Position numbers and translations under genes: made by a program. This document shows positions 1 through 402 of a stretch of 7,095 nucleotides of DNA, piece by piece (the stretch's first letter is position 1; the number at the start of each line of letters is the position of its first letter). Below the pieces are notes generated by a model. The model searched no databases, was not told the origin of the DNA, and was given only the letters and a program-made list of their open reading frames with translations. Source of the DNA: a virus (taxonomy: Duplodnaviria > Heunggongvirae > Uroviricota > Caudoviricetes); the IMG/VR virus record IMGVR_UViG_2734482551_000011. One strand, given 5' to 3'.

Positions 1-28
1 AGGGACAGCTGATAGAAACAGAAGCCAC
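1..28 (-). CDS. insA: IS1 InsA, first 9 codons only (5' partial, continues off window)
   Basis: Minus-strand GTG at 28..26 followed by GCT TCT GTT TCT ATC AGC TGT CCC, i.e. (M)ASVSISCP, the InsA N-terminus as I recall it. Truncated by the window edge. Confidence 0.6.
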
Positions 29-83
29 TGGAGCACCTCAAAAACACCATCATACACTAAATCAGTAAGTTGGCAGCATCACC
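1..83 (-). mobile_element. IS1 insertion sequence, terminal 83 bp including the left inverted repeat (61..83); the rest of the element lies beyond the left window edge
   Basis: Reverse complement of 1..83 reads GGTGATGCTGCCAACTTACTGATTTAGTGTATGATGGTGTTTTTGAGGTGCTCCAGTGGCTTCTGTTTCTATCAGCTGTCCCT, which I recognise as the canonical start of IS1 (terminal inverted repeat followed by the insA start region). Recognised from memory, not searched. Confidence 0.85.
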
Positions 84-402
84 AGCCTTCTTGAGGCTAC
101 CACCTGTTTTCAGGTGTCATTCAGACGTGATTTGCCCCAGATTGGGAAAGCACGCTTTTTTCTCAGCTATCGTCCTCTTATTTTGCCGTTACATTTCTTT
201 TTGCATTCTAATGATTAATTTACAATAATAATATCGGTAATTATTGAGTAATAATAAATTAATTATTGCAAATGTAATTTAATTCCATCTTCGCGTTATA
301 TTCCAATCTTTAATCTCCGCATGGAACAAGTTGCATGCGTGACTATATTAAGACGACTTATAACCACCAAAACATTTGCTTTGCAAGCAAAAACAGTGAC
401 CA

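Follow-up and report, generated by a model that had tools for sequence, protein, structure and literature searches.

The left edge of the window, i.e., the whole analyzed stretch of 7,095 nucleotides, is the left end of an insertion sequence IS1 joined to prophage DNA. Most probably, this IS1 occupies the place of deleted phage DNA, where a single insertion would have been followed by serial losses on the side of its right inverted repeat (IRR) through IS1-promoted adjacent deletion.

The reverse complement of the IS1 left end was read directly at positions 1..83. On the minus strand it comprises the 23-bp left terminal inverted repeat (IRL, 61..83, read from 83 to 61 as GGTGATGCTGCCAACTTACTGAT), a leader between IRL and the insA start codon (29..60), which shows 100% identity to other IS1 copies, and the first nine codons of insA (1..28). 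The latter begin with a GTG start codon at 28..26, encode VASVSISCP (28..2) and run leftward off the window. As a whole, positions 1..83 are 100% identical to unrelated IS1 copies, e.g., L002 6001-6083 and the second IS1 in L005. The match is not due to chance, since 4998 of the 5426 complete E. coli genomes were matched by a query of 200 nt that begins with 50 nt of IS1 sequence. The initial annotation, which had taken the first 83 bp for an IS1 end with insA pointing leftward, is borne out by the sequence reading, the insA codons and the full identity to IS1 ends. Its description of this entire segment as the inverted-repeat end has to be narrowed, as the repeat proper covers only 61..83, while 29..60 are leader and 1..28 belong to insA.

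The boundary between IS1 and phage DNA lies exactly at 83/84, as position 84 corresponds to position 5001 of the IS1-free locus L003, where the homology to the IS1-free allele begins, and it is unambiguous because the bases on either side differ. Both this junction and the adjacent 9 bp agccttctt (84..92) had been placed correctly beforehand. In the IS1-free allele, the 9 bp are present as a single copy (L003 5001-5009); they are native flank and not a target-site duplication.

The window represents the late end of a lambda-like prophage, and IS1 is located in the equivalent of the lambda b region. Positions 84..832, between IS1 and tfa, form the AT-rich, non-coding rest of the phage b region (749 bp; GC content of 20-43% per 100 nt over positions 101-900). 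They are collinear with the IS1-free prophage L003 as well as with the phages ev099 and mEp332, and no Rfam family was found in 84..832. Next to them lie two genes on the minus strand, tfa (833..1414) coding for a tail fibre assembly protein (Pfam Caudo_TAP, E-value 4.6e-44) and an stf-like side tail fibre gene (1414..4515, start codon ATG at 4515) coding for 1035 amino acids with the Pfam domains phage_tail_N, Phage_fiber_2 and Collar. To the right of stf, the window contains lom and the 3′ part of J. The gene order J - lom - stf - tfa, followed by non-essential DNA, is that of a lambdoid tail-fibre and b region, as judged from the Pfam matches of the four ORFs and the collinearity with ev099 and mEp332.

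Several further features of this module were observed. A mosaic boundary is located at position 255, as many E. coli prophages (Qin-like, beside ydfJ) share 255..7095 with the window, but not 84..254. The Rfam family IS009 (RF02111), a candidate sRNA family and not an insertion sequence, was matched at 873-1071 on the minus strand with 218 bits, wholly inside the tfa coding sequence. The tail fibre gene contains a 278-nt run of N (3405-3682) in its Ala/Ser-rich repeat part, for which the S. sonnei loci have 260 bp, pointing either to an 18-bp difference in the fibre or to an estimated gap length. The lom gene (approximately 4581-5409) is truncated; relative to the E. coli locus L001 it shows an 83-bp internal deletion at 4625/4626 with an overlap of 6 bp, and its product in the S. 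sonnei loci has a length of only 135-160 amino acids. In addition, a second run of N (4661-4935) has the same 38 bp on both sides as an exact direct duplicate (4623-4660 and 4936-4973). Near-identical S. sonnei genomes carry one copy of these 38 bp with nothing between, and the arrangement at 4623-4973 resembles a scaffold gap left unmerged, or else an effect of masking, rather than biology.

An exact look-up of the tfa protein yielded ten long contigs of the S. sonnei type (L005-L014), among them L010, the chromosome CP019689 of S. sonnei 75/02 (PMC5447701). Window positions 1..3404 are 100% identical in six of the ten and 99.88% identical in the other four; beyond position 3404 all ten are 99.6-99.9% identical to the window. 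The window as such is not contained in any complete E. coli genome, where the best matches are mosaic with an identity of about 96-98%, and an exact-pattern scan of species-representative genome contigs for the 36-nt IS1/flank junction gave no match.

Continued leftward in these genomes, the 83 bp are part of a full-length IS1, which had been expected by the initial annotation. Its length is 768 bp in L001, L005-L010, L012-L014 and L017-L021, and 767 bp in L011. The Pfam domains Zn_ribbon_InsA and HTH_Tnp_IS1, followed by DDE_Tnp_IS1, were detected on the IS1 genes of L007, L009, L010 and L014 (starting at locus position 11387), and the locus is labeled as ‘IS1A family transposase, programmed frameshift’ in RefSeq records of E. 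coli. At the far end of the element, IRR (GGTAATGACTCCAACTTATTGAT) was found in L005-L014 and matches IRL at 18 of 23 positions (L005). The copy agrees with the IS1A-type elements of E. coli and Shigella in its imperfect terminal repeats of about 23 bp and in the ORFs insA and insB′ connected by a −1 programmed frameshift, as well as in its length of 768 bp, which was judged from the matching genomes as the window holds only 83 bp. It differs from them in that the usual direct target duplication of 8-9 bp is absent at the window locus.

The flank at the IRR end reads ...catatcatccacccaatt in nine of the ten S. sonnei loci (L005-L013) and ends with cacccaatt, which differs from agccttctt at the IRL end and is the outcome that the initial annotation had predicted for a deletion. 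In L014 (S. sonnei LR213458), IRR abuts a fragment of the usher gene yfcU without a match to agccttctt, and in E. coli of the L001 type the flank is gccaataag. The left flank of the window's own IS1 is presumably that of the near-identical genomes, of which one, L014, differs, so that the flank of the window could differ too. An internal control is provided by a second IS1, which lies 6.2 kb further left in genomes of the L005 type (L005 1504-2272, window-oriented index), is identical in sequence and orientation to the IS1 at the window locus and is flanked by a perfect 9-bp duplication (cattaggta). The two copies in L005 bracket intS, yfdC, mlaA and a regulator pseudogene, like a composite element. 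A target duplication marks a simple insertion event and not the element itself, and its absence is compatible with the identity as IS1. At the window locus it is missing because 550-741 bp beside IS1 have been lost. Missing target duplications are usually attributed to adjacent deletions or to recombination between insertion sequences (PMC11708052).

The lost DNA is defined by the IS1-free allele of E. coli STEC316 (L003), in which the same prophage end is uninterrupted. The free lambdoid phages PhiR70_1, ev099 and mEp332 carry the same DNA without interruption at 99% identity, and a search of the complete E. coli genomes gave 101 that have it, an approximate count. In the E. coli loci L001, L017, L020 and L021 (STEC409), the IRR junction follows L003 position 4450 (gccaataag), corresponding to a loss of 550 bp (4451-5000). 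In the S. sonnei loci L005-L013 it is located 191 bp further left, 15 bp before the ATG of a regulator gene, and 741 bp are lost. In E. coli ETEC1746 (L018) it is found at L003 position 3495, with a loss of 1505 bp that includes the whole regulator gene, and in S. sonnei LR213458 the junction in yfcU implies a loss on the kilobase scale. The junction between IRL and agccttctt is identical in every IS1-bearing allele compared, whereas the IRR junction varies. Thus, DNA of the IS-free allele is missing exactly outward from one end of a retained IS1 (L003 compared with L001, L005 and L018), as is characteristic of IS-mediated adjacent deletions. This also supports the earlier suggestion that an IS1 close to tfa could mark a truncation of the cargo region, as 741 bp beyond tfa are missing relative to the IS1-free allele, which is a small loss.

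According to a 200-nt query, the IRL/agccttctt junction is present in up to 79 complete E. coli genomes and the left junction of the 550-bp deletion in 101, both counts being approximate due to a coverage threshold applied to joined BLAST pieces. A count of 525 genomes, obtained with the first 1500 nt as query, was rejected, since positions 84..1500 alone exceed 80% coverage. When the left junction of the S. sonnei type was sought in E. coli, all ten matches listed were two-piece matches of the L001 type; since pieces 191 bp apart get joined, the two types are not separated by this search. Among the 5426 complete E. coli genomes, the 550-bp deletion was never found in an allele lacking IS1; therefore, the deletion is tied to IS1. 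In the same 5426 genomes, a simple-insertion intermediate with a 9-bp duplication of agccttctt was found in none, and the search for a duplication of gccaataag gave only a single two-piece, non-contiguous match. As no duplication-bearing intermediate was found at either edge, the first step can be neither reconstructed nor oriented from these genomes.

An additional rearrangement was observed in STEC409, where the right junction (L019) lies in htrE and its partner junction (L021) is 2.25 Mb away, with a full IS1 and one half of htrE at each. This layout indicates a large IS1-bounded inversion, and a 9-bp htrE duplication was looked for at the two split junctions and not found.

The element is retained with an unchanging junction at one end and several different endpoints at the other, and it lacks a duplication, which together form the classical signature of IS1-promoted adjacent deletion by intramolecular replicative transposition. 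In the proposed course of events, one IS1 would have been inserted into the ancestral prophage and 550 bp beside it would have been lost, giving the state that is widespread in E. coli. Starting from the IRR end of the same IS1, with the window-side junction remaining fixed, further losses would then have removed another 191 bp in the S. sonnei lineage, another 955 bp in ETEC1746 and, in one S. sonnei strain, a segment on the kilobase scale that reaches yfcU. In each case the InsAB′ transposase would attack a nearby target on the same molecule, by which the insertion sequence is kept and the intervening DNA is lost without a duplication. The junction of the 550-bp deletion is probably ancestral, because it accompanies either IS1 sequence variant and occurs at both chromosomal locations, att-lambda and intS.

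The same products would result from recombination with a second, transient IS1 copy. Here, RecA-dependent recombination of this IS1 with a directly oriented copy nearby would leave one hybrid IS1 with mismatched flanks, missing DNA and no duplication; the second copy could have been located 15 bp ahead of the regulator gene (S. sonnei), at the end of this gene (ETEC1746) or in yfcU. This explanation is possible though rather unlikely. IS1 is the most abundant insertion sequence in Shigella, and S. sonnei carries very many copies (PMC7373316), including the identical directly oriented one 6.2 kb away; moreover, the distant junctions in STEC409 show that the locus takes part in rearrangements involving two IS1 copies. 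However, every endpoint, of which there are at least three, would require a further independent insertion, each time on the IRR side, and neither a genome with two IS1 copies bracketing the lost segment nor a duplication-bearing intermediate was seen.

A single origin of the element has to be weighed against independent insertions at one hotspot (cca / agccttctt) in E. coli and S. sonnei, by which the shared junction would be a convergence. Two IS1 variants with six differing positions occur at the site, the S. sonnei copy has the same sequence as a second IS1 resident in S. sonnei, which would also fit gene conversion or a separate insertion by the resident variant, and the site borders an AT-rich tract. 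AT-rich DNA is favoured by IS1. Nevertheless, independent insertions are improbable, as the junctions are identical to the base with the same orientation, the duplication is present in no copy, and both variants (L001 and STEC409 L021) share the far-side junction of the 550-bp deletion, which is not expected of separate events. In addition, the IS1 copies differ at 6 of 768 positions (0.8%), which is less than the divergence of their flanks (32 of 1499 positions, 2.1%). A single ancestral insertion is therefore favoured. Finally, an assembly artefact, in which a contig end collapsed onto a repeat without a real joint between IS1 and prophage, is hardly credible, because, although the window starts inside a multicopy repeat and contains two runs of N, one with the 38-bp duplicate resembling an unmerged scaffold gap, independent projects recovered the identical junction in no fewer than ten S. 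sonnei chromosomes (closed or assembled as long contigs) and in as many as 79 complete E. coli genomes.

Among the DNA missing from the S. sonnei lineage are the 3′ 62 nt of the tRNA-Ser gene serU together with 278 bp of its chromosomal downstream flank (L003 4551-4890). Judged by sequence comparison, this stretch can be regarded as a relic attachment junction within the phage lineage, because a match at the native serU locus exists in 5423 of 5426 genomes and because in L002 it forms a real junction between prophage and chromosome. The DNA to the left of the tRNA fragment was considered as an integrase remnant, which was rejected as it is the native chromosomal flank of serU in the same 5423 genomes. 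The relic is also found in the b region of ev099, mEp332, PhiR70_1 and prophages at att-lambda, and it suggests an old aberrant excision from, or recombination of, an ancestor integrated at serU. When the deleted region was scanned against Rfam, the only matches were below threshold and lie on the tRNA fragment. Furthermore, a hypothetical 55-codon ORF annotated in ev099 loses its first 11 codons through the deletion; its 3′ 44 codons and the stop codon correspond to window positions 84..218. No ATG-started ORF of at least 40 codons was found in the 756 bp between the ATG of the regulator gene and window position 84.

The neighbouring gene encodes a 247-amino-acid AraC-family regulator, which is closest to YdeO and GadX, with scores below the curated NCBIfam cut-offs. 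In the S. sonnei loci it lies immediately to the left of IS1 (L005 12115-12857, outside the window). Whereas the regulator is intact with 247 amino acids in the E. coli and phage copies, it is a pseudogene in the S. sonnei loci, where one base pair is missing from a G run at nt 409, which causes a frameshift. It is removed as a whole only in ETEC1746. In S. sonnei, the deletion leaves 15 bp of the region upstream of the regulator. The lineage of the window has lost the serU relic and, except for these 15 bp, the upstream region, and the regulator is inactivated by the separate frameshift.

IS1 is transcribed leftward like the regulator, and in S. sonnei its IRR lies 15 bp from the regulator start, so that read-through from insAB′ could in principle have replaced the native promoter. 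This is considered very improbable. If it were true, IS1 would be the driver of a prophage-borne regulator of the acid-resistance type in lineages with an intact gene, and the repeated deletions on the IRR side would reflect selection on regulator expression and not neutral decay.

The pattern resembles the classical adjacent deletions of IS1, in which one end and its flank stay fixed, deletions extend from the other end to varying points, the element is kept and no duplication is formed. Such deletions were reportedly described for the gal region of E. coli K-12 by Reif and Saedler in 1975, and replicative intramolecular IS1 deletions are said to have been demonstrated by Turlan and Chandler in 1995. 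In contrast to these, the events considered here are deduced from natural variants and were not observed, with recombination between IS1 copies as a possible alternative.

The affected part of the prophage corresponds to the b region of lambda and lambdoid phages, i.e., the non-essential DNA from tfa to attP-int, and its closest sequenced relatives are the Escherichia phages ev099 (Radostvirus), mEp332 and PhiR70_1. With these it shares the order J - lom - stf - tfa - AT-rich spacer - accessory gene - transposase fragments - int/xis, and the intact spacer is 99% identical in the relatives. The lineage of the window differs in that the spacer is split by IS1 and 741 bp shorter, the YdeO-like regulator gene is frameshifted and the prophage adjoins intS/yfdC instead of att-lambda.

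The result represents a known insertion sequence with known behaviour at a locus already annotated in public genomes, i.e., textbook biology, and opens no long-standing question. The edge of the contig is a genuine IS1 junction, which means little beyond annotation. For the S. sonnei lineage, it shows a prophage accessory region that has decayed, with the region upstream of the regulator lost and the regulator gene frameshifted. As a natural case, the locus illustrates cleanly how one junction of an IS1 stays fixed while deletions extend in series from the opposite end, and this series could act as a lineage marker in the typing of S. sonnei and E. coli.
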